NCBI GenBank assembly: GCA_030670005.1 | Contig: DAOVCL010000002.1 | Location: forward strand, 1-34,912 | Source: Candidatus Zixiibacteriota bacterium | GTDB taxonomy: Bacteria > SM23-81 > DAOVCL01 | Reading direction: 5' to 3' | DNA length: 34,912 bases | Shown here: positions 10,366 through 34,906 of the stretch, in pieces | Position numbering within the stretch: position 1 is the first letter of the stretch | Layout of the letters: every line of letters begins with the position of its first letter | The notes under the pieces: generated by a model | Told to the model about the DNA's origin: nothing | What the model saw: only the letters and a program-made list of their open reading frames with translations | Databases searched by the model: none | Translations under genes and position numbers: made by a program

Positions 10366-10596
10366 ATCAGGAAATTTCACCAGATCTGGCATATCTGGAG
10401 ACGCATCGGACAGGCTATTGGCGACTGGGTTGCCCGAGTCGTGTTGACGGCTTTCTACTTCACGCTTTTTGCCCCTTTCGGCCTGGGGGTGCGGCTATTG
10501 AGCGACCCACTGGCGATCAAGCGCAAACATAAGGCACATTGGCTGGAACGCACAACCCATGATTTGACCTTGGACGACGCACGGAGGCTCTCCTGA
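10366..10596 (+). CDS. Small hydrophobic protein translationally coupled to the carbamoyltransferase (no canonical start codon)
   Basis: The open frame reads IRKFHQIWHIWRRIGQAIGDWVARVVLTAFYFTLFAPFGLGVRLLSDPLAIKRKHKAHWLERTTHDLTLDDARRLS. Its TGA shares one base with the carbamoyltransferase ATG (TGATG). AGGAGG lies 8 nt before an ATC at 10366, and there is no ATG, GTG or TTG in the frame. I recall similar small proteins upstream of carbamoyltransferases, but have not verified this. Confidence 0.4.
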   Translation: MRKFHQIWHIWRRIGQAIGDWVARVVLTAFYFTLFAPFGLGVRLLSDPLAIKRKHKAHWLERTTHDLTLDDARRLS

Positions 10597-12440
10597 TGTA
10601 CATACTGGGCATCTCGTGCTACTACCACGACGCGGCAGCCTCCCTGCTGCACGACGGCATGTTGGTGGCTGCCGCCGAAGAGGAGCGTTTCACCCGCAAG
10701 AAGCACGACTACAGCTTCCCCGACCATGCCATTGACTTCTGCCTGCGTCAAGCCGGGATAACTGGGCAAAACCTGGACTTGGTAGTTTTCTATGAGAAAC
10801 CGCTGCTCAAGTTCGAGCGTATTCTCATGACCACATTGCAGACCTTTCCCCAGTCATGGGACGTCTTCCGCGAGTCCATGATTGGTTGGTTCAACGAGAA
10901 GCTGTGGATCAAAGGCCACATCCTGACCAAATTGAATATTCCCAATGAGAAGCTGCTCTTCATCGAGCATCACCTGAGCCATGCTGCCAGCGCCTTCTTC
11001 TGCTCACCCTATGAGGAGGCGGCCATCCTGACGGTAGATGGAGTTGGGGAGTGGACGACGGCAACGGTGGGTCGGGGAAGGGCCTTCTGGGCAGAGGGGC
11101 AGGGGAGGCAAGGAGAGAGTGAGACAAGGGGCAAGAAAGAGCAGTCTGCAACCCGCAGTAATTCGATTGAGCTTTTCGACGAGGTGAATTTCCCCCATTC
11201 CCTGGGCCTGCTCTACTCTGCCTTCACCGCCTTCCTGGGCTTCCGGATCAACAATGGCGAGTATAAGGTGATGGGCATGGCACCCTATGGGCGGCCCAAC
11301 CGGGTGGAGGACATCTATAAACTCATCGAGGTAGGCGACAACGGCGAATTCCGGCTGAATATGGACTACTTCTGTTTCCACCACTCCATCTCACGCACTT
11401 TCAACGGCAATTTTGTGAAGCTATTCGGTGAGCCGCGAGTGCACGAATCGGCCTTCTACACCCTCATTACTCATCCAAAGCAAGATCATCCCCAATGGAA
11501 TGAGGCCAGAGCCCAGAGCAATCAGCACTATGCTGATATCGCCGCCAGCATCCAGAGGGTGACTGAGGAGACGTTGCTCAAGATGGCCAGCTATGCCCAC
11601 CGGTGTACCGGCCTGAAAAAGCTGTGCATGGCCGGTGGTGTGGTGCTGAATTCGGTGGCCAACGGCCGCATCCTGCGCGAGACGCCTTTCGAGGATGTCT
11701 TCATCCAGCCAGCAGCGGGCGACTCCGGTGGGGCCCTGGGGGCGGCCCTATACGCCTACCATGTGCTGCTGGGTCAACCACGCAAGTTCGTGATGGAGCA
11801 TGCCTACTGGGGCCAGGGCTACTCCCCCGATGAGGTACGAGCCGAAATTGAGGCCACGGGCCTGCCCTACCAGCGGATAGAGGATCCAGAGCGGCTGGCG
11901 CAGCTAATGGTGGATGACCTGCTGGCTGGCAAGGTGATCGGCCTCTTCCAGGGACGCTTCGAGTGGGGGCCACGGGCACTGGGTAACCGCTCCATCCTGG
12001 CGGATCCGCGCCGGGCGGAGATGAAGGCTATCGTCAATGCCCGCATCAAGTTCCGCGAGCCCTTCCGCCCCTTCGCGCCGGCAGTGTTGGAGGAACGGGC
12101 CGCCGACTTTTATGCCGACCTTGACGACCCAACCCGTCACTATCCCCTTCGCCACATGCTCATGGTCTACCACACAAAGGACGGCCAGGGTGAAAAGATC
12201 AAGGCGGTCACCCACCAAGGGGGCACGGGGCGCTTGCAAACGGTGCGCCGGGAGTGGAACCCGCTCTATTACCGCACAATCGAACTGTTCGGCGAAGCCA
12301 CGGGGGTGCCGGTGCTGCTCAACACCAGTTTCAACCTGCGTGGTGAGCCCATCGTTAACACGCCAACTAATGCGCTGGACACGTTTGCGAAAAGCGGGAT
12401 TGAGACGCTATACATGGATGGATATGTTATCCGTAAGTAG
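10596..12440 (+). CDS. Carbamoyltransferase (NodU/CmcH family)
   Basis: 614 aa. The N-terminus is MYILGISCYYHDAAASLLHDGMLVAAAEEERFTRKKHD. Other family blocks are HHLSHAASAFF, FPHSLGLLYSAFT, KLCMAGGVVLNSVANG, EWGPRALGNRSILADP and LLNTSFNLRGEPIV. It is GC-rich relative to its neighbours. Confidence 0.9.
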   Translation: MYILGISCYYHDAAASLLHDGMLVAAAEEERFTRKKHDYSFPDHAIDFCLRQAGITGQNLDLVVFYEKPLLKFERILMTTLQTFPQSWDVFRESMIGWFNEKLWIKGHILTKLNIPNEKLLFIEHHLSHAASAFFCSPYEEAAILTVDGVGEWTTATVGRGRAFWAEGQGRQGESETRGKKEQSATRSNSIELFDEVNFPHSLGLLYSAFTAFLGFRINNGEYKVMGMAPYGRPNRVEDIYKLIEVGDNGEFRLNMDYFCFHHSISRTFNGNFVKLFGEPRVHESAFYTLITHPKQDHPQWNEARAQSNQHYADIAASIQRVTEETLLKMASYAHRCTGLKKLCMAGGVVLNSVANGRILRETPFEDVFIQPAAGDSGGALGAALYAYHVLLGQPRKFVMEHAYWGQGYSPDEVRAEIEATGLPYQRIEDPERLAQLMVDDLLAGKVIGLFQGRFEWGPRALGNRSILADPRRAEMKAIVNARIKFREPFRPFAPAVLEERAADFYADLDDPTRHYPLRHMLMVYHTKDGQGEKIKAVTHQGGTGRLQTVRREWNPLYYRTIELFGEATGVPVLLNTSFNLRGEPIVNTPTNALDTFAKSGIETLYMDGYVIRK

Positions 12441-13674: not shown

Positions 13675-13997
13675 TTGCCTGGACAGCTCTGCTCACTACT
13701 GCCCGCCATGCTACATGCTGATGGTCTACCCCTGGAAGGACGGCCAGGGGGAGCGTAATCCAGGTGGTCACCCATGAGGACGGGACGAGATGCCTGCAGA
13801 GGGTAGGCCAGGGATCGAACCCGCTCTACTACCCCCGATCGAGCTGTTCGATGAAAGAACGGCTTGCCGGTGTTGCTCAACACCAGCTTTAATCTGCGTG
13901 GTGAGCCATTGTCAATACGCCGGAGAACGCGCTGAACACCTTCAGTAAGAACGGCATTGACACGCTACACATGGGTGGGTTTGTGATCAGAAAGTGA
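13675..13997 (+). pseudogene. 3' remnant of a second, diverged carbamoyltransferase gene (multiple frameshifts)
   Basis: The nucleotide sequence is clearly alignable to 12130..12440. One matching pair is catgctgatggtctacc..aaggacggccaggg..gtcaccca..gaacccgctctacta against the corresponding stretch of the intact gene. Another is ttgctcaacaccagctttaatctgcgtggtgagcc against ctgctcaacaccagtttcaacctgcgtggtgagcc. The reading frame is broken. The remnant ends ..TLHMGGFVIRK-TGA. Confidence 0.7.
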
Positions 13998-14008: not shown

Positions 14009-14191
14009 ATGAAAACTTTTATCCGTAGCATGACATCCAAGTTGGACGTGGCGAGGGAATTGTTGGGGTTTCTGTGGCGACGCAAACTGTGGTGGCTGAT
14101 CCCGATGGTCGCAGTGTTGCTGCTCTTCGGTTTGCTGCTGATCTTCGCCTCTGCGTCTGGGATTGGACCATTCATCTATACGCTATTCTAA
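14009..14191 (+). CDS. Small membrane protein, DUF5989-like (usual partner of carbamoyltransferases)
   Basis: MKTFIRSMTSKLDVARELLGFLWRRKLWWLIPMVAVLLLFGLLLIFASASGIGPFIYTLF. GAAGGGAGGG lies before the ATG at 14009. The gene sits directly after the carbamoyltransferase remnant stop. The family assignment is from memory. Confidence 0.65.
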   Translation: MKTFIRSMTSKLDVARELLGFLWRRKLWWLIPMVAVLLLFGLLLIFASASGIGPFIYTLF

Positions 14192-14195
14192 CGAA

Positions 14196-14236
14196 ATATT
14201 TAGGAATTCCCTAAAAATTCCTAAATGACCTGTTAT
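14196..14236. repeat. Variant copy of the ATTT(C/A)GGAATT palindrome, upstream of tatC
   Basis: ATTTAGGAATT (14198..14208), a 7-nt spacer, then AATTCCTAAAT (14216..14226). The right flank gacctgttat is shared with 608..636. Confidence 0.5.
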
Positions 14237-14279
14237 GAGTCCAATATCTGAAATTATCCTTTCCCTCCCCTTTTAGGGT

Positions 14280-16630: not shown

Positions 16631-16792
16631 CTATTACTCAGGGTCACATTATAGTTAGCACATTGTCATTTCAAGTGTCATTGCGAGACTTGTCCCGAGC
16701 GCAAGCGAGGGAACCCGACGAAGCAATCTCATAGTCCAAACCTCCATTCAGCGTTTTGGATTGCTTCGCTGCGCTCGCAATGACATGCAATC
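16631..16792 (+). repeat. Long-hairpin 'cattgcgag...ctcgcaatg' repeat element, copy 1
   Basis: It shares the leader attact.tcagg.tcaca.tatagtt.gcacattg..atttcaag.GTCATTGCGAG with 23277..23465. Internal arms are GTCATTGCGAG/CTCGCAATGAC and GAAGCAATC/GGATTGCTTC. Confidence 0.65.
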
Positions 16793-23276: not shown

Positions 23277-23465
23277 GCATTACTATTCAGGTCACAATAT
23301 AGTTCGCACATTGGTATTTCAAGGGTCATTGCGAGGCTCGTCCCCAGCGCAAGCGAGGGAACTCGACGAGCAATCTCATAGTCTCAACCCCCATTCAGGG
23401 GTTTGGATTGCTTTGCTGTTCCCTCACTTCATTCGGGGCTACGGCTCACTGCAACGACTTGTAAT
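23277..23465 (+). repeat. Long-hairpin 'cattgcgag' repeat element, copy 2 (full-length arms)
   Basis: It has the same leader and left arm as 16631..16792. The right arm gttccctcacttcattcggggctacggctcactgcaacgac is the imperfect complement of gtcattgcgaggctcgtccccagcgcaagcgagggaac. Confidence 0.65.
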
Positions 23466-25242: not shown

Positions 25243-25408
25243 ACATTTCGGAATTTCTTAGAAATTCCGAAATGTAGAGGGTTGTTTGAAGGGGGTAAGC
25301 CCCCTTCAAGGGTGACAGCGGAACAATCCAAGCGAGCGGAGGATTGCGGGGCGCCAGAGGGGCGAGAGCCCCTATGGAGAACTTTCGCGACCGAAGGGAG
25401 CTAAGTTC
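25243..25408 (+). repeat. Structured ~165-nt repeat element, copy 2
   Basis: Direct copy of 1295..1458, with compensatory substitutions in two hairpins (TTGAAGGGGG/CCCCCTTCAA and AGGGGC-GAGA-GCCCCT). Confidence 0.75.
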
Positions 25409-29672: not shown

Positions 29673-29692
29673 CGAAACCATATGGGTAGGTC

Positions 29693-29783
29693 GGGGTCAA
29701 GCCTTTAACTGCTAATTACCGTAGGGGGCTGTCAGAGGGGGATACTTAGCAGCGCCTAAATTGGTAATTAAAGGTTTGACCCC
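29693..29783. repeat. 91-bp palindromic element with 16-bp terminal inverted repeats, at the core/cassette boundary
   Basis: GGGGTCAAGCCTTTAA (29693..29708) pairs with TTAAAGGTTTGACCCC (29768..29783) with one mismatch. An internal stem is CTGCTAA/TTAGCAG. Confidence 0.6.
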
Positions 29784-29878
29784 CAACTGTGCTTCGGGTA
29801 GGGATACTGCTCCAGGTACTCCCGGGCGAAAGTGGTTTTGCCCGATCCATTAGGACCGGCAACGACTAAGGCTTGCAC
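29768..29878 (-). pseudogene. 5' fragment of a zeta-toxin-like / AAA P-loop kinase gene, truncated by the palindromic element
   Basis: GGGAGG precedes a GTG at 29878. The product is VQALVVAGPNGSGKTTFAREYLEQYPYPKH (Walker A GPNGSGKT). The frame then reads into the right TIR and stops after 36 codons. Confidence 0.5.
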
Positions 29879-29924
29879 TCTCAATCAACCTCCCACTCGC
29901 CATATGTCTGAGTTCAAGCGCTTG

Positions 29925-30089
29925 TTATGAGGCTTTTTGTTGCTTGATTGCGAAAGACACGACGCGATGATTAGAAGCTTTTTGCCTTCTTCGAGCATCT
30001 TCTACTATATTCTTTATGTTGTAGTTGAATTTCTCGGCATTAGCTTCACGAATTTTTCGAACTTCTTGAACTATAGGATCTTTCCACAT
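29925..30089 (-). CDS. 54-aa protein, conserved small partner of the upstream PIN-like gene (below the ORF-track size cut-off)
   Basis: MWKDPIVQEVRKIREANAEKFNYNIKNIVEDARRRQKASNHRVVSFAIKQQKAS. The ATG lies 1 nt after the PIN-like gene stop. The N-terminal block (DPIVxEVRxxRxxxAxKFNYd) is one I recall from small ORFs in similar pairs, but this is unverified. Confidence 0.5.
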   Translation of the reverse strand: MWKDPIVQEVRKIREANAEKFNYNIKNIVEDARRRQKASNHRVVSFAIKQQKAS

Positions 30090-30090
30090 T

Positions 30091-30567
30091 TTAGTCTTCT
30101 CCCATTAACTCTTCAGGTGTGCAAATAATCGGACATTCATATCCTCTTGATTTGCAAACTGATTTAATTCCGATTGATATTTCAGCATTTGCCAGGTGAG
30201 CGCAGTTCCATGTTAAGAGAAACTGTATGTTGTGAACAGTTGCAATGGCGATGTGTGCAGCATCTGTGGCAGCTTTCTGAGGAATAACACCAGCGTCCAG
30301 AATTGCAGAGGCCAAATCTGTTACATCATCGGTAATATCCAACAGGTCAAATTCAGACAAAATTTCAAGTCTTCTTTGTGATGCTTCTTCGTCCCCTTGC
30401 CCTGTCTCATCAATCACAAACTGCGAAATAAAAATTTCAAAATTATGCCTTCGCTTTTCCCACCATTCATGGGTAATTTGTTGATGTGCAGCAACAATCA
30501 AATCCCTACTTGGTCGGGCAGTCTGATAACTTGGAATTGTGGTTTCTAAATATAGTTTAGCTTTCAT
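30091..30567 (-). CDS. PIN-like domain protein (VapC-like toxin candidate)
   Basis: 158 aa. Acidic residues sit in PIN-like positions: LYLETTI..., VIDETGQGD and ATDAAHIAIATV. WNCAHLAN follows. The C-terminus is CTPEELMGED. Confidence 0.6.
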   Translation of the reverse strand: MKAKLYLETTIPSYQTARPSRDLIVAAHQQITHEWWEKRRHNFEIFISQFVIDETGQGDEEASQRRLEILSEFDLLDITDDVTDLASAILDAGVIPQKAATDAAHIAIATVHNIQFLLTWNCAHLANAEISIGIKSVCKSRGYECPIICTPEELMGED

Positions 30568-30649
30568 GGTTCAGATACTCTTCATCTAAATGTGGCTAAA
30601 TCAAAGTTTATGCTTTCCAGCCTCATAACAATGATTAGGCGACGAGCAC

Positions 30650-31018: not shown

Positions 31019-31092
31019 GCTTAACGGGTGGCTAAGCGGCTGGCAAAGAAGCGCAGCGGATTTGCCAGTCCGACTTCAGCCGATTGTTGTAC
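31019..31092. other. attC-like recombination site
   Basis: gCTTAAC is followed by a 4-nt unpaired spacer. GGCTAAGCGG pairs with CCG(a)CTT(c)AGCC, and CTGGCAAA pairs with TTTGCCAG around the loop GAAGCGCAGCGGA. The site ends with a second spacer and GTTGTac. The extra unpaired bases are all in the right arm. Confidence 0.6.
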
Positions 31093-31268: not shown

Positions 31269-31904
31269 TCATTTTGCAAAAATTAAGGTAGTGTTCTCTG
31301 ATGTTATTTCCTGGCCATGATCTAATAGACCATTGAAAAGAATTTCAATAGCACGAATCATCAATGGATTTTCGGTCTTGATACCGTCTAGTACTACCTT
31401 GTTATCTTGATATCCCAGAAAAGTGCAAAAAAAACCAAATTTCAATGCGGTATTGAGTCCAATCCTGAAATTGTACGGAACAAGATTATCGAAGACATAC
31501 AAGTGAATATTGGGATGTTGCACCAGCAGGTGGCATCTTTCGGGATTTTTAGTAGCCCATTCCTTAAAGGGAATAACATTCACTGCAACAAACACCTCGT
31601 ACCGACCAGTAGCCACAAGCTCTATGATCCTTACGTAAGGATCATAGCTTGGATATCCCCCTGCACCTGACATCAAATAAATTTTGCCTTCTTGGGCGGA
31701 ATCAATGTTGATAAACACTTGCGCAAACAACTGCCGAAGCTGTTGTCTTGAGGAAACACGAGAAAAAGATCTATATACTGAGAACGGAAGGAATTTGTTC
31801 AGATACGATAACAGCCTGGACTTATCGAATAGTACCAAGGATACTAACGCCAAAAGAACTCCAGCTATGAAGCTTGCTATTATGCTTATCGTGAAGGTAA
31901 ACAT
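31269..31904 (-). CDS. Single-pass membrane-anchored protein of unknown function (second gene of the two-gene cassette)
   Basis: 211 aa. The N-terminal TM helix is FTISIIASFIAGVLLALVSLVLF. A ~170-aa soluble domain follows, which I cannot assign. It starts 9 nt after the stop of 31914..33335. Confidence 0.6.
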   Translation of the reverse strand: MFTFTISIIASFIAGVLLALVSLVLFDKSRLLSYLNKFLPFSVYRSFSRVSSRQQLRQLFAQVFINIDSAQEGKIYLMSGAGGYPSYDPYVRIIELVATGRYEVFVAVNVIPFKEWATKNPERCHLLVQHPNIHLYVFDNLVPYNFRIGLNTALKFGFFCTFLGYQDNKVVLDGIKTENPLMIRAIEILFNGLLDHGQEITSENTTLIFAK

Positions 31905-31913
31905 GGTGACACG

Positions 31914-33335
31914 CTAGGCGCAATTATATGTAAGTTTTGTTATAGCGTCAAAAAAAACAGACAGTCGAGCTTTCATATTGTGGTCAATGGTTATATCTAT
32001 TCCATTTCTGAATTGCAAATCGATCCAGGCTTGGAGAATAACCTTCTTTTCCTTTGAGATATGGCAATTACTGAGTTCAATAGACATCTTTTTACACCCT
32101 TCCAATATTTCTTTGATCATTCTTTCACGGATGTGATATCTCTCTAATAGAATTTGCAATTCAGAAAGGGAGTTATCCGCTTTATTCTTCCAAATTGATT
32201 TATAGAAAAAGGCCTTCTCTTTCTCAGAAGAAATGTTTTCTAATAATAACAATGTATAATAACTAAATATTCCCCGCTTAACATCTGAAAATGCATCAAT
32301 TTTTGAAATAATATCATAGTAATCATTCTTGATTTGCCCGAGTTTGGCACAAATCGGATATATCCTAGTCATTAATTCTTTTTCTTCATGATAACCCAAA
32401 TCTGCTAACGCAGCATTCCATATAGTTTGCAAGAAAGATGTTCTCTGATAGCTAAATTCCAGGTAATCATCAATAGAATGGAATTTATTATTGACAAATC
32501 TCTTTGATTGGGCGACTCCAAGATCGAAGCAAATTTTGTTTACTAATTCAGAATTTACTAAATTGAATTGCCTATTATTTATTAATGCTTGCAAGGAGGT
32601 AGAGAATAAAAATAGAGTGATAACATTTTGAGGCAGACCGTTAAGCCCAAGAGCAGTAAGGCGTCCATAGCGTTCCTTTTTATTATCACACACGTTGTCA
32701 AGTATAATAAAAATAGAAAACAGAATTTCCGCAAGGATAGAATATGCTAACGAATTATTGTCACAACAACATAAAAGAAAAGGAATGGCAGATTTAAACT
32801 TGCGATATGGAGTGGCCTGAATGGTATATTTAATAATGGAGTAATTATATATTTCTTTGAATTCTCTTAGACTGGGGCTAATATATGAATAAAATAATGC
32901 AGTAAATATTCTACCAATTTCGTTGGCATAGGACGCTATTGATACTTTTTGTGAGATTCTAAACTTTAGTATAGCAATAAGGGCCTCTAGTACCGTTGCT
33001 TCTGGTATGTGCTCAAGAGATACAAATCTGAGTTCATCAGCCGTATGCGGAGAGTTATTAACTGGAACGCCTACAACAACAGTGCATCTGTAAATCGCAA
33101 CCGTCCAAGTAGCCCTTTCAGCAAAATAAACAAGGCCATCTACAGATATTTCTAAGGTAGTTTCTTCCTTAACTTCGCGTACAAGAGCATCCTGTTCATT
33201 CTCTCCTACTAGCACCTCACCACCAGGAAGTGACCACAACCCGCTCACAAACTCTTCTTCTGAAGACCTTCTCAGCATTAAAACCTCATTAGCGTCATTA
33301 ATTATTAATCCACCCACAAAACGTCTTTTCATCAT
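31914..33335 (-). CDS. Nudix hydrolase fused to a polyprenyl (trans-isoprenyl diphosphate) synthase-like domain with non-canonical Asp-rich motifs
   Basis: The Nudix box GEVLVGENEQDALVREVKEETTL fits Gx5Ex7REUxEExGU except for the last G. The C-terminal ~300 aa carry RKFKS and FIILDNVCDNKKERYG (at the DDxxD..RRG position). They also carry SYQRTSFL (KT position), KLGQIKNDYYDI (GxxFQxxDDxxD position) and DVKRGIFSY. Confidence 0.65.
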   Translation of the reverse strand: MMKRRFVGGLIINDANEVLMLRRSSEEEFVSGLWSLPGGEVLVGENEQDALVREVKEETTLEISVDGLVYFAERATWTVAIYRCTVVVGVPVNNSPHTADELRFVSLEHIPEATVLEALIAILKFRISQKVSIASYANEIGRIFTALFYSYISPSLREFKEIYNYSIIKYTIQATPYRKFKSAIPFLLCCCDNNSLAYSILAEILFSIFIILDNVCDNKKERYGRLTALGLNGLPQNVITLFLFSTSLQALINNRQFNLVNSELVNKICFDLGVAQSKRFVNNKFHSIDDYLEFSYQRTSFLQTIWNAALADLGYHEEKELMTRIYPICAKLGQIKNDYYDIISKIDAFSDVKRGIFSYYTLLLLENISSEKEKAFFYKSIWKNKADNSLSELQILLERYHIRERMIKEILEGCKKMSIELSNCHISKEKKVILQAWIDLQFRNGIDITIDHNMKARLSVFFDAITKLTYNCA

Positions 33336-33410: not shown

Positions 33411-33542
33411 GTACAACGCTTGAGCTCAACCGCCGCCAACAATGCGGAGCAAAGAGCCTGAATGACCTATGAGCGTTTTGTGGGACAATGCATTTCAAGA
33501 ACCGCAACGTTGTTGGCGGTCGGCTGAAGCAACTTGTTAGCG
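33411..33542. other. attC-like recombination site (long form)
   Basis: gtaCAAC...GCTTGAGC/GCTGAAGC...CCGCCAACAA/TTGTTGGCGG, then a long variable loop, ending ...cttGTTAGcg. The track ORF 33298..33507 runs through it and is spurious. Confidence 0.55.
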
Positions 33543-33588
33543 CAAAAACATAACTCTAAGAACTTGTTCCTATTACTTCCCACAGTTG

Positions 33589-34527
33589 TCAAAATGTACG
33601 TTTACCTTTCTTCATCGCATCAATTTTAGCTTTCATTCGACCAATTACTTCGTCGTATGTGCGTAGATAAAGATTGGGAACATCAGATTGAATTTTACGG
33701 ACATCAATTGGATTTACCTCTCCCCTTCGTCCAATGATTACGAACATTTTAGGCCGATAGGCTAATAAACCGTATTTTTCATAGATTGTTTTTCGATTTT
33801 TTTCTTCGTCAAAAAATATGCTGTATTCTCGGAGTTGTGCACAGGCTTCTAATACGGCTGCCGTAAATCTAAGTCTATTTTTCTTTAATACAAATATCTG
33901 TGTTGAGGGAAGTTTCAGTTCGAGCAAATCGGATAATGAACTTTGATCAATTGGCTCTAAGACGAAATCTGGTATAAGCGAATCCCCATCATCTTTGGCT
34001 AAAACTATGTGAGGGTGTGCACTCTTGTATTCATCATTTAAAATAAAATCAGGATTTCTCTCAAAGAAATCTTGAAAATCTTTTTCTTTTGTATTCGTAT
34101 CATTTACCAGCGACTCTAGTTCTTCTACAGCAGTTCGTAACGCCATCGTTTCTGAAGAGGTGATATATAGAATGCTATGAAGATTTTGTTCATCATCAAG
34201 AAACTTATAATTACCATCAGGGCTGAGTGAGACCAGCTTAATCTTGTCACCAAAGAGAGTAAATGCAACAAATTCATGTTCCGGCAATTCTTGTGATTTA
34301 TTATCTTCTTCGGGTTCTTCTTCAGGGTCAATTCCACGAACAACATTCTCAGCCGCTGGACCATTTTTTAATTGGGTCCTTTCAAAGGTGACAACTTCAC
34401 CTTCTTTTAGCGTCTTAAAACCTTCGCCTTTTATAAAACTAAAGTGCACAAACAAATCTTCACCATTTTCATCTGTGATGAATCCATATCCCTTTTTTTC
34501 GTTAAACCACTCTACTGTGCCTTTCAT
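33589..34527 (-). CDS. Cold-shock domain fused to a Shedu-type (DUF4263, SduA-like) PD-(D/E)xK nuclease domain
   Basis: The N-terminus [47 protein letters not shown] is a CspA-type CSD with RNP1/RNP2-like blocks. An acidic linker follows. The DUF4263-like layout is [16 protein letters not shown]...IPDFVL...LLELKLP...AQLREY...[10 protein letters not shown]. Confidence 0.78.
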
Positions 34528-34604
34528 AATCCCTCTTTACATTAAAACCAATTCATTAATAGATTCTGAGCAACATATATTTGGAGTTTGACATTGATGA
34601 GAGA

Positions 34605-34677
34605 GCGCTAACGATCAAGCTCACCTGCCGCTATGGAGCGCAGCGGAATAGCGGTCAGGTGCAGCGCCTTGTTAGAA
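34605..34677. other. attC-like recombination site
   Basis: gcgCTAAC is followed by a spacer. CACCTG pairs with CAGGTG and CCGCTAT pairs with ATAGCGG around the loop GGAGCGCAGCGGA. One extra base sits in the right arm. The site ends with a second spacer and GTTAGaa. Confidence 0.65.
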
Positions 34678-34711: not shown

Positions 34712-34906
34712 TCAAAAATATCTACTTTTCTGGAAATTTATTTTTAATTCCTTGTTCACCATTTTACAGTTAGGGCAAATTTTTTCCACTAATCTGTATA
34801 TATAATAAAGGACGTTTCTCTTTTTGCAATTCCGAGTGTATTTACACAGCGGACACTCGGCACAATGTTTAACAGCATCACTAGTTTTGTTTGTATTCTT
34901 ATTCAT
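34712..34906 (-). CDS. 64-aa cysteine-rich (zinc-ribbon-like) protein
   Basis: HCAECPLC...CPNC gives two CxxC pairs. The protein is basic. It is a single-ORF cassette upstream (in minus-strand sense) of the attC-like site at 34605..34677. Confidence 0.45.
   Translation of the reverse strand: MNKNTNKTSDAVKHCAECPLCKYTRNCKKRNVLYYIYRLVEKICPNCKMVNKELKINFQKSRYF

Follow-up and report, generated by a model that had tools for sequence, protein, structure and literature searches.

A protein of 312 residues encoded by Candidatus Zixiibacteriota bacterium (assembly GCA_030670005.1, contig DAOVCL010000002.1) is a genuine fusion of a cold-shock domain (CSD) with a Shedu-type nuclease, and its gene makes up, on its own, a promoterless integron cassette that forms part of a chromosomal cassette array. 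The gene lies on the minus strand at positions 33589..34527 of the stretch analyzed, which comprises positions 1 to 34,912 of the contig and is referred to below as the window. The identity of the parts of the protein, a CSD, an acidic tether and a Shedu core, is near certain. An initial annotation made from the sequence alone had proposed both the fusion of a CSD with a Shedu PD-(D/E)xK nuclease and its carriage as a single-gene cassette between two attC sites; profile matches, motif conservation and fold agree on the former, and attC folds, the attC scan and boundary complementarity on the latter. All sequence features named in that annotation were found where it had placed them. The novelty implied by that annotation is overstated, and its question whether such a fusion had been catalogued is answered by Gu, Li, Deep, Enustun, Zhang & Corbett (bioRxiv 10.1101/2023.08.10.552793; later Mol Cell 2025), who, in section 8 and Table S3, include "cold-shock (CSD) domains" with the DNA-binding domains found N-terminally in Type 1G Shedu, a type comprising 99 of 7,687 Shedu proteins. 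The present gene is a clean new example of this type and not a new kind of system. The coding sequence and the parts of its product are as follows.

33589..34527, minus strand: CSD-Shedu coding sequence, 312 aa, ATG start, stop codon included (open reading frame list, Pfam, PADLOC, full-length homologues).
34531..34535, minus strand: GAGGG ribosome-binding site, 3 nt 5' of the ATG, read from the sequence.
34339..34527, minus strand: residues 1-63, CspA-type cold-shock domain (OB fold), PF00313, with RNP1 (KGYGFI) and RNP2 (LFVHF) intact.
34276..34332, minus strand: residues 66-84, acidic proline-containing flexible linker, net charge -8, low predicted local distance difference test (pLDDT).
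34102..34275, minus strand: residues 85-142, conserved beta-meander and long helix that make up the "linker/middle" part of the 228-aa core, ahead of the Pfam nuclease domain, from the core-only AlphaFold2 (AF2) model.
33646..34092, minus strand: residues 146-294, Shedu (DUF4263/SduA_C) PD-(D/E)xK domain, PF14082, with motifs I (E148), II (D187), III (E203/K205) and IV (Q231).

A profile search placed the Pfam CSD domain PF00313 on residues 1-63 (E=1.4e-25, 89.4 bits), in agreement with the CspA-type OB fold previously read in residues 1-65, and this match and that of PF14082 are both significant and do not overlap. The domain is 55-59% identical to solved CspB and CspE structures with a TM of ~0.9, and its pLDDT in the full-length AF2 model is ~90. 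The aromatic and RNP residues W7, F8, K12, Y14, F16, F26, H28, F29 and F37 are retained; across 25 aligned homologues K12, G13, G15 and F16 are invariant and F26 and H28 almost invariant. The top NCBIfam models for the domain were the CspE/CspC RNA chaperones/antiterminators, CspE being the best cold-shock protein (Csp) match at 86.9 bits against a cutoff of 120, and all Csp and retron-effector equivalog scores fall under their cutoffs. A stand-alone CspA-family protein of ~70 aa was ruled out by these sub-cutoff scores and by the position of the CSD inside a 312-aa protein. The fusion is likewise not a frameshift or annotation artefact, as the open reading frame is continuous and, among 370 related database proteins, dozens have the whole CSD and SduA_C architecture at 50-78% identity. 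The acidic linker previously noted after the CSD corresponds to the 19 residues 66-84 with a net charge of -8; it is predicted to be disordered, with pLDDT <50 for residues 67-82 in the full-length model. A net-negative charge in the 20 residues preceding the core was found in 87% of 150 relatives, irrespective of the N-terminal domain.

The C-terminal 228 residues are a conserved Shedu core with all four catalytic motifs. SduA_C (PF14082) matched residues 146-294 over profile positions 2-158 of 159 (48.7 bits, cutoff 27; E=1.2e-12), and a PADLOC check, which the initial annotation had proposed, gave matches to 13 SduA models, the top one being PDLC00383 (E=4.7e-23). The DUF4263/SduA pattern reported in that annotation, consisting of IPDF (D187), ELK (E203/K205), AQLREY (Q231) and IIGRRG (G266/R267), is real and conserved: E148, D187, K205 and Q231 are each present in 145 of 145 relatives, and position 203 has E in 133 of them and D in the other 12. 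The motifs occur in the same order as in B. cereus SduA, in which the active-site motifs are E204, D249, E264/K266 and Q295 (10.1101/2023.08.10.552793), with a similar spacing of 39/16/26 versus 45/15/29. Searches of PDB sequences with the nuclease core, whether by single sequence or by profile, did not match the solved Shedu proteins, and membership of the family was therefore tested by fold. A core-only AF2 model of residues 85-312, built from 145 sequences, had a pLDDT of 88 and a predicted template modelling score (pTM) of 0.78, with strands at 86-92, 95-101 and 107-109, a helix at 116-142 and each catalytic residue on the expected helix or strand. When this model was searched with Foldseek, all eight matches at E<=0.001 were Shedu structures (8ps4, 8ps5, 8ti8, 8ti9). 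The top match was E. coli SduA (8PS4/8PS5; E=1.6e-8, query TM-score (TMq) 0.65-0.67), whose alignment of 221-230 columns to the 228-aa query extends into residues 85-142, a region conserved together with the nuclease domain in all relatives. B. cereus Shedu (8TI8/8TI9) followed at E=1.3e-6 to 1.3e-4, and the next match after Shedu was the nicking endonuclease Nt.BspD6I (E=2.4e-3). A full-length AF2 model from 25 sequences was of lower confidence (pLDDT 67, pTM 0.44, active-site region <50) and gave Foldseek matches to CSDs alone. The initial annotation had tied its Shedu assignment to a DUF4263 match and to PD-(D/E)xK residues in a structural model; the match is present and the residues are in the model, and the assignment therefore stands.

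The cassette that holds the gene and the attC-like sites around it were delimited as follows.

33417..34611, minus strand: complete gene cassette, 1195 bp, from the TT of the upstream R' (G/TTAGCGC) to the G of its own R' (G/TTGTAC).
33411..33542, minus strand: the cassette's own attC, 132 nt, R'' GCGCTAAC to R' GTTGTAC, arm duplex -19.1 kcal/mol, 23 arm pairs.
34606..34677, minus strand: attC of the preceding cassette, 72 nt, R'' TTCTAAC to R' GTTAGCG(C), arm duplex -17.6 kcal/mol, 24 arm pairs.
31019-31092, minus strand: third strong attC-like site, from the duplex-energy scan.

Sites were detected with an in-house duplex-energy scan, rather than a curated attC covariance model, with a background of ~0.1 hit per kb. 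The initial annotation had placed attC-like flanks at 34605..34677 and 33411..33542, and the scan recovered these at 34606-34677 and 33411-33542; apart from these two and 31019-31092, no site in the window has arm-duplex energies as strong, except an unrelated palindrome at 1285-1342 (-17.9). When the bottom (plus) strand was folded as DNA, the site at 33411-33542 had unpaired bases on its 3' arm, and in the site at 34606-34677 (z=-2.3) two bases of that strand's 3' arm were extrahelical, in keeping with attC sites oriented along the gene strand. An ungapped arm-identity scan for attC found none in the window because real attC arms have bulges, and an Rfam scan of the window, with Rfam containing no attC model, gave no matches. 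The R' of the attC at 34606..34677 is the 5' boundary of the CSD-Shedu cassette, and the core site 5' of the gene, GTTAGCGC (34612-34605), is the exact reverse complement, with 0 mismatches, of the inverse core GCGCTAAC of the gene's own attC. The next junction of the array is likewise complementary (GTTGTACG versus CGTACAAC), and in a control a perfect 8-mer boundary match was seen for ~2.4% of control open reading frames. Such complementarity at the boundaries is the most specific sign of a cassette, and that of GTTAGCGC and GCGCTAAC is the basis for delimiting the cassette at 33417..34611. Within it the CSD-Shedu gene is the sole sizeable open reading frame, all others being nested inside it. 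A promoter in the cassette leader was looked for, and a scan of the 77-nt leader (34528-34604, minus strand) gave no promoter-like site. The array extends from ~29860 to past the window end, and its other side borders chromosomal genes including tatD and ksgA.

Homologous loci demonstrate that the cassette is mobile and recurs in other integrons. Two loci (L031/L032), whose protein is 78% identical, hold a complete integron in which the gene, bounded by GTTAGCGC/GCGCTAAC, occupies cassette 2, and in L031 an integron integrase gene adjoins in divergent orientation (TIGR02249, 484 bits, cutoff 265). In L036-L039 (67% identical) it occupies the first cassette position, next to an integron integrase gene (460 bits, cutoff 265), with GTTGTACG/CGTACAAC boundaries, whilst in L027/L029 (68% identical) it is a lone cassette with its own attC and GTTAGCGC/GCGCTAAC boundaries, lying between an ftsH fragment and speA. 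A further homologue (L034) has attC-like sites on either side. Carriage of all homologues as cassettes was ruled out, since most genome and metagenome contexts are without attC: perfect boundary matches were found in 5 and attC-like sites in approximately 10 of 41 further metagenomic loci, in which tblastn detected no intI, and about a quarter of the contexts of the clade look cassette-borne. A 72% identical homologue on a 1.88-Mb contig (L026, 10001-10930) lies between genes for an NrfD/4Fe-4S protein and a molybdopterin oxidoreductase, with gaps of 104 and 24 nt; no convincing attC was found flanking it, and it looks like a single-gene insertion in a respiratory operon. At a further locus (L040, 1-6933), a 66% identical CSD-Shedu gene with no flanking attC follows a type III-A csm operon (cas10/csm1, csm2 and RAMP genes) in the same orientation, 74 nt downstream of it. 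Accessory nucleases often occupy roughly such positions near type III-A CRISPR operons. Neighbouring genes vary at every homologous locus, and because the gene is also the sole non-nested open reading frame of its cassette, it is taken to be a single-gene system with no obligatory partner. Species-representative genomes with relatives belong mostly to Acidobacteriota, with others from Anaerolineaceae, Magnetococcus, Desulfobacter, Geobacteraceae and further groups. A phage-borne gene was discounted: a collection of 2.9 million viral contigs yielded only 1 relative.

To the same core are joined many different N-terminal domains. The 228-aa core is 55-79% identical among the closest 150 proteins, and its relatives fall, at 50% clustering, into 263 clusters at E<=1e-30 and 1,504 at E<=1e-3. 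The variable part is always N-terminal and is usually joined by a net-negative linker. A survey of N-terminal domains, as suggested in the initial annotation, assigned a CSD to 79 of 145 close relatives, followed by REC (11), IF2_N (6), the omega subunit of RNA polymerase (5), LysW-type zinc ribbon (3), HTH_23 (3) and sigma-70 region 1.1 (2), with single cases of GreA_N, RRM, 2Fe-2S ferredoxin and SCP2. Among 136 cluster representatives 86 Pfam families were present in total, including REC (14), CSD (13), thioredoxin (6), IF2_N (5), RRM (3) and TIR_2, STAS, SEFIR and GNAT (2 each). The N-terminal sequences of the 145 proteins form 35 clusters, which require at least 39 changes on the core tree, while CSD versus non-CSD, scored by itself, requires at least 22, although this is a crude neighbour-joining tree and the change counts are probably too high. 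These sequence comparisons indicate that N-terminal domains are exchanged frequently on this core.

In the Type 1G CSD cluster of Gu et al. the architecture is the same, an N-terminal CSD followed by the DUF4263 nuclease; that entry is bioinformatic, without functional or structural work on a CSD member, and the word "integron" occurs 0 times in the paper. In the literature searched no other paper joined Shedu with cold-shock domains, and a functional study of CSD-Shedu seems not to exist. B. cereus SduA (Type 1A; PDB 8TI8/8TI9) shares the PD-(D/E)xK core with motifs I-IV at 15-21% identity, with no sequence-profile match. Its N-terminal domain, predicted to bind single-stranded nucleic acid and keep the nuclease inactive, is a dimeric sPC4/Whirly fold, whereas here it is an OB-fold CSD, and a helical spiral forms the linker domain of the B. 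cereus protein where the present model has a beta-meander and one long helix. N-terminal domains in Type 1A Shedu have been proposed as sensors of single-stranded nucleic acid (10.1101/2023.08.10.552793). The closest structural match of the core, E. coli SduA (PDB 8PS4/8PS5; Loeff et al., Cell 2025), is 17-19% identical and is described as a single-protein system reading a DNA feature through its N-terminal part, a large clamp that senses free double-stranded DNA ends, in contrast to the 63-residue CSD on a flexible acidic tether found here. CspA, CspB, CspE and the CSD effector of retron-Se72 have the same OB fold and RNP motifs; those proteins are of ~70 aa, whilst here the CSD is one domain of a 312-aa nuclease. 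Matches of the CSD to NCBIfam retron_eff_Se72 (E=2.8e-11) and PADLOC CSD_V (E=3e-12) provide a precedent for a CSD in a defence system. Integrons are documented libraries of defence genes (Kieffer 2025; Darracq 2025; Getz 2025) and Xanthomonas arrays are reported to contain Shedu cassettes, with the same packaging of a compact defence gene and an attC in an array. Those studies concerned Vibrio, Xanthomonas and clinical mobile integrons, whereas the present array is environmental and its cassette is found again in several metagenomic integrons, where the core sites are conserved. This recurrence in environmental integrons may be new, if modestly so. So may the unusually wide and fast-changing N-terminal set of the nuclease core; some of its members found here in metagenomes (RNA_pol_Rpb6, i.e. 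RNA polymerase omega, IF2_N and RRM) are absent from the portion of Table S3 of Gu et al. that was compared.

By analogy with the characterized Shedu proteins, it is on balance probable that single-stranded DNA exposed by an invader is the ligand of the four CSDs, and that its binding recruits or de-represses the nuclease. Homology to the B. cereus and E. coli SduA proteins suggests that the core would assemble as a homotetramer, that the N-terminal and linker parts would hold this tetramer inactive, and that DNA would be cut after release of the restraint. The four tethered CSDs would then act as sensor or selector, taking the role that Gu et al. propose for the sPC4/Whirly fold in Type 1A Shedu. 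Their ligand would be exposed single-stranded DNA, RNA being less likely, and candidates include overhanging ends of injected genomes, replication or rolling-circle intermediates, single-stranded DNA phage genomes and DNA that arrives through conjugation or transformation. Binding might either bring the tetramer to junctions of single- and double-stranded DNA or lift autoinhibition, with cleavage of the invader DNA as the outcome. Expression would be from an integron Pc promoter or by read-through, and spread through IntI-mediated cassette exchange. A single-stranded nucleic acid is a plausible trigger, and conservation of the aromatic platform by which CSDs bind such ligands, which is intact, counts for CSD function. 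Defence context counts for the proposal too, namely the homologue beside a csm operon and a neighbouring cassette whose Nudix domain matches the PADLOC entry PDC-S07. It is speculation, from the charge of the linker and the recurrence of negative linkers in the clade, that the linker could act as a nucleic-acid mimic occupying the CSD or the DNA groove.

Several observations weigh against this proposal. The N-terminal domain need not sense nucleic acid, because the same core bears many domains that do not bind it (REC, thioredoxin, ferredoxin, SCP2, PTS IIB). The full-length AF2 model, with its pTM of 0.44, gives no confident interface between CSD and core, and the oligomeric state and activation are extrapolated across 15-21% identity, since the PDB searches described above gave no sequence-level match to solved Shedu. 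The core is unusually conserved across phyla, and several close homologues stand alone among housekeeping genes, not in defence islands. No integron integrase is present within the window, which ends 235 bp past the upstream attC, and no phenotype, binding or cleavage data for any CSD-Shedu were found in the literature searched.

Housekeeping-like domains in the N-terminal set prompt a different explanation, in which the CSD is an integrated bait that copies a housekeeping Csp bound or modified by phage takeover factors, so that attack on it would free the nuclease, the other N-terminal domains of the clade being similar baits. The near-canonical nature of the CSD, at 55-59% identity to CspB and CspE, is in keeping with this, as are the joining of the same core to fragments of host machinery (RNA polymerase omega, sigma-70 region 1.1, the N-terminal domains of GreA and IF2, RRM, thioredoxin) and the frequent apparent swaps, which the crude tree perhaps overcounts. 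The argument is, however, purely inferential, no phage factor directed against Csp proteins having been identified in this analysis, and the REC, HTH, STAS and TIR modules that are also present are compatible with the usual sensing or regulatory functions suggested by Gu et al. (10.1101/2023.08.10.552793); this explanation is considered unlikely. In its widest form, to which a still lower probability is attached, the clade would be a plug-and-play immune platform, comparable to the integrated decoys of plant NLR immune receptors, in which a near-fixed Shedu core recurrently captures small copies of host proteins (Csp, RNA polymerase omega, sigma-70 region 1.1, GreA-N, IF2-N, RRM, thioredoxin) as baits for the factors with which phages take over the host; the variants would spread with the help of integron cassettes, and the CSD would report attack on host cold-shock proteins and not single-stranded nucleic acid.

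Two further explanations leave the CSD as a nucleic-acid-binding module or take the protein out of immunity. The CSD may tether the enzyme to nascent or free RNA in the manner of CspA and CspE, the substrate then being RNA, R-loops or transcribed DNA and not single-stranded DNA ends, an idea consistent with the sub-cutoff CspE/CspC models that head the NCBIfam matches, with the RRM, RNA polymerase omega, GreA_N and IF2_N domains of related cores, and with the homologue that ends a type III-A CRISPR operon, type III systems acting on transcripts. Characterized Shedu enzymes nevertheless cut or nick double-stranded DNA, the PD-(D/E)xK motifs and fold match DNA nucleases, and CSDs such as those of CspB and CspA bind single-stranded DNA at least as well as RNA; an RNA-directed enzyme is considered improbable. 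A regulated housekeeping or stress nuclease, or a selfish toxin that stabilizes the cassette and shares only the DUF4263 fold with Shedu, is also given a low probability. It would accommodate the homologues of 68-72% identity found singly between housekeeping genes (NrfD/molybdopterin oxidoreductase; ftsH fragment/speA), the strong conservation of the core across phyla, the single relative in the viral collection and the presence in the array of a PIN-domain cassette, of a type that stabilizes chromosomal integrons. However, the insertion between the ftsH fragment and speA (L027) is a lone cassette with GTTAGCGC/GCGCTAAC boundaries and therefore mobile accessory DNA, no antitoxin partner is encoded within the present cassette, PADLOC and Pfam place the protein in a family with shown anti-phage activity, and patchy distribution and rampant swapping of N-terminal domains are typical of defence genes.

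The remainder of the array contains further cassettes. That following the CSD-Shedu gene (31269-33335, minus strand), between the attC sites at 33411-33542 and 31019-31092, has two open reading frames, one encoding a 473-aa fusion of Nudix and polyprenyl-synthetase-like domains and the other a protein of 211 aa that matched no family. PADLOC identifies the Nudix part with the candidate defence protein PDC-S07 (E=3.6e-15), and this may be a second, uncharacterized defence cassette. At 30620-30645 (minus strand) an attC stump, GCCTAATCATTGTTATGAGG, stands alone between a glyoxalase cassette and a PIN cassette; its GTTATGAG is the exact complement of the R'' CTCATAAC of a weaker attC at 29862-29935 (minus strand), which suggests a deleted or degenerate site fusing two cassettes. 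The PIN cassette (29925-30567, minus strand) encodes a 158-aa PIN-domain protein followed by a 54-aa open reading frame without a family match, and these may be a toxin-antitoxin pair with an unusual toxin-first order. Just past the last attC, at 29688-29870, an apparent start of a P-loop kinase or zeta-toxin-like protein (VVAGPNGSGKTTFAREYLEQYP) is found and then breaks off, and is followed by a 30-nt inverted repeat (29688-29717/29759-29788), a region that may mark the end of the array. Upstream of CSD-Shedu, a cassette whose start is beyond the window end encodes, at 34712-34906 (minus strand), a zinc-ribbon-like protein of 64 aa that is rich in cysteine (CAECPLC...CPNC) and matched no family.

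Outside the array, an intergenic family of palindromic repeats with AAATTCCGAAATGT-like arms was observed at 1285-1429, 14186-14238, 25243-25408 and 613-636, one 135-nt pair of copies (1295-1429 and 25243-25377) being 87% identical. Repeats of this type score as attC-like in a naive scan, yet are perfect palindromes lying outside the array. A repeat of ~130 nt is present in two copies 6.6 kb apart (16642-16771 and 23290-23418) that are 88-89% identical. The 3' part of a 614-aa open reading frame at 10596-12440 (12151-12349) is repeated 1.56 kb downstream (13710-13907) at 72-91% identity, suggesting a partial gene duplication or pseudogene remnant.

Shedu is widespread, and the way in which infection is detected by its many N-terminal domains has been established for only a few members. 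The CSD variant is attractive in this respect, as its sensor is a domain of 63 residues whose ligand binding is thoroughly understood, the entire system fits into a single-gene cassette of 1.2 kb that can be synthesized with ease, and clear point mutants are available for both halves; it suits asking directly whether single-stranded nucleic acid licenses a Shedu nuclease. The nuclease core is a hotspot of N-terminal domain exchange, and the integrons of uncultivated environmental bacteria, beyond those of Vibrio and the clinic, circulate known defence genes. The picture of Shedu and of integrons is extended by these data, not changed.

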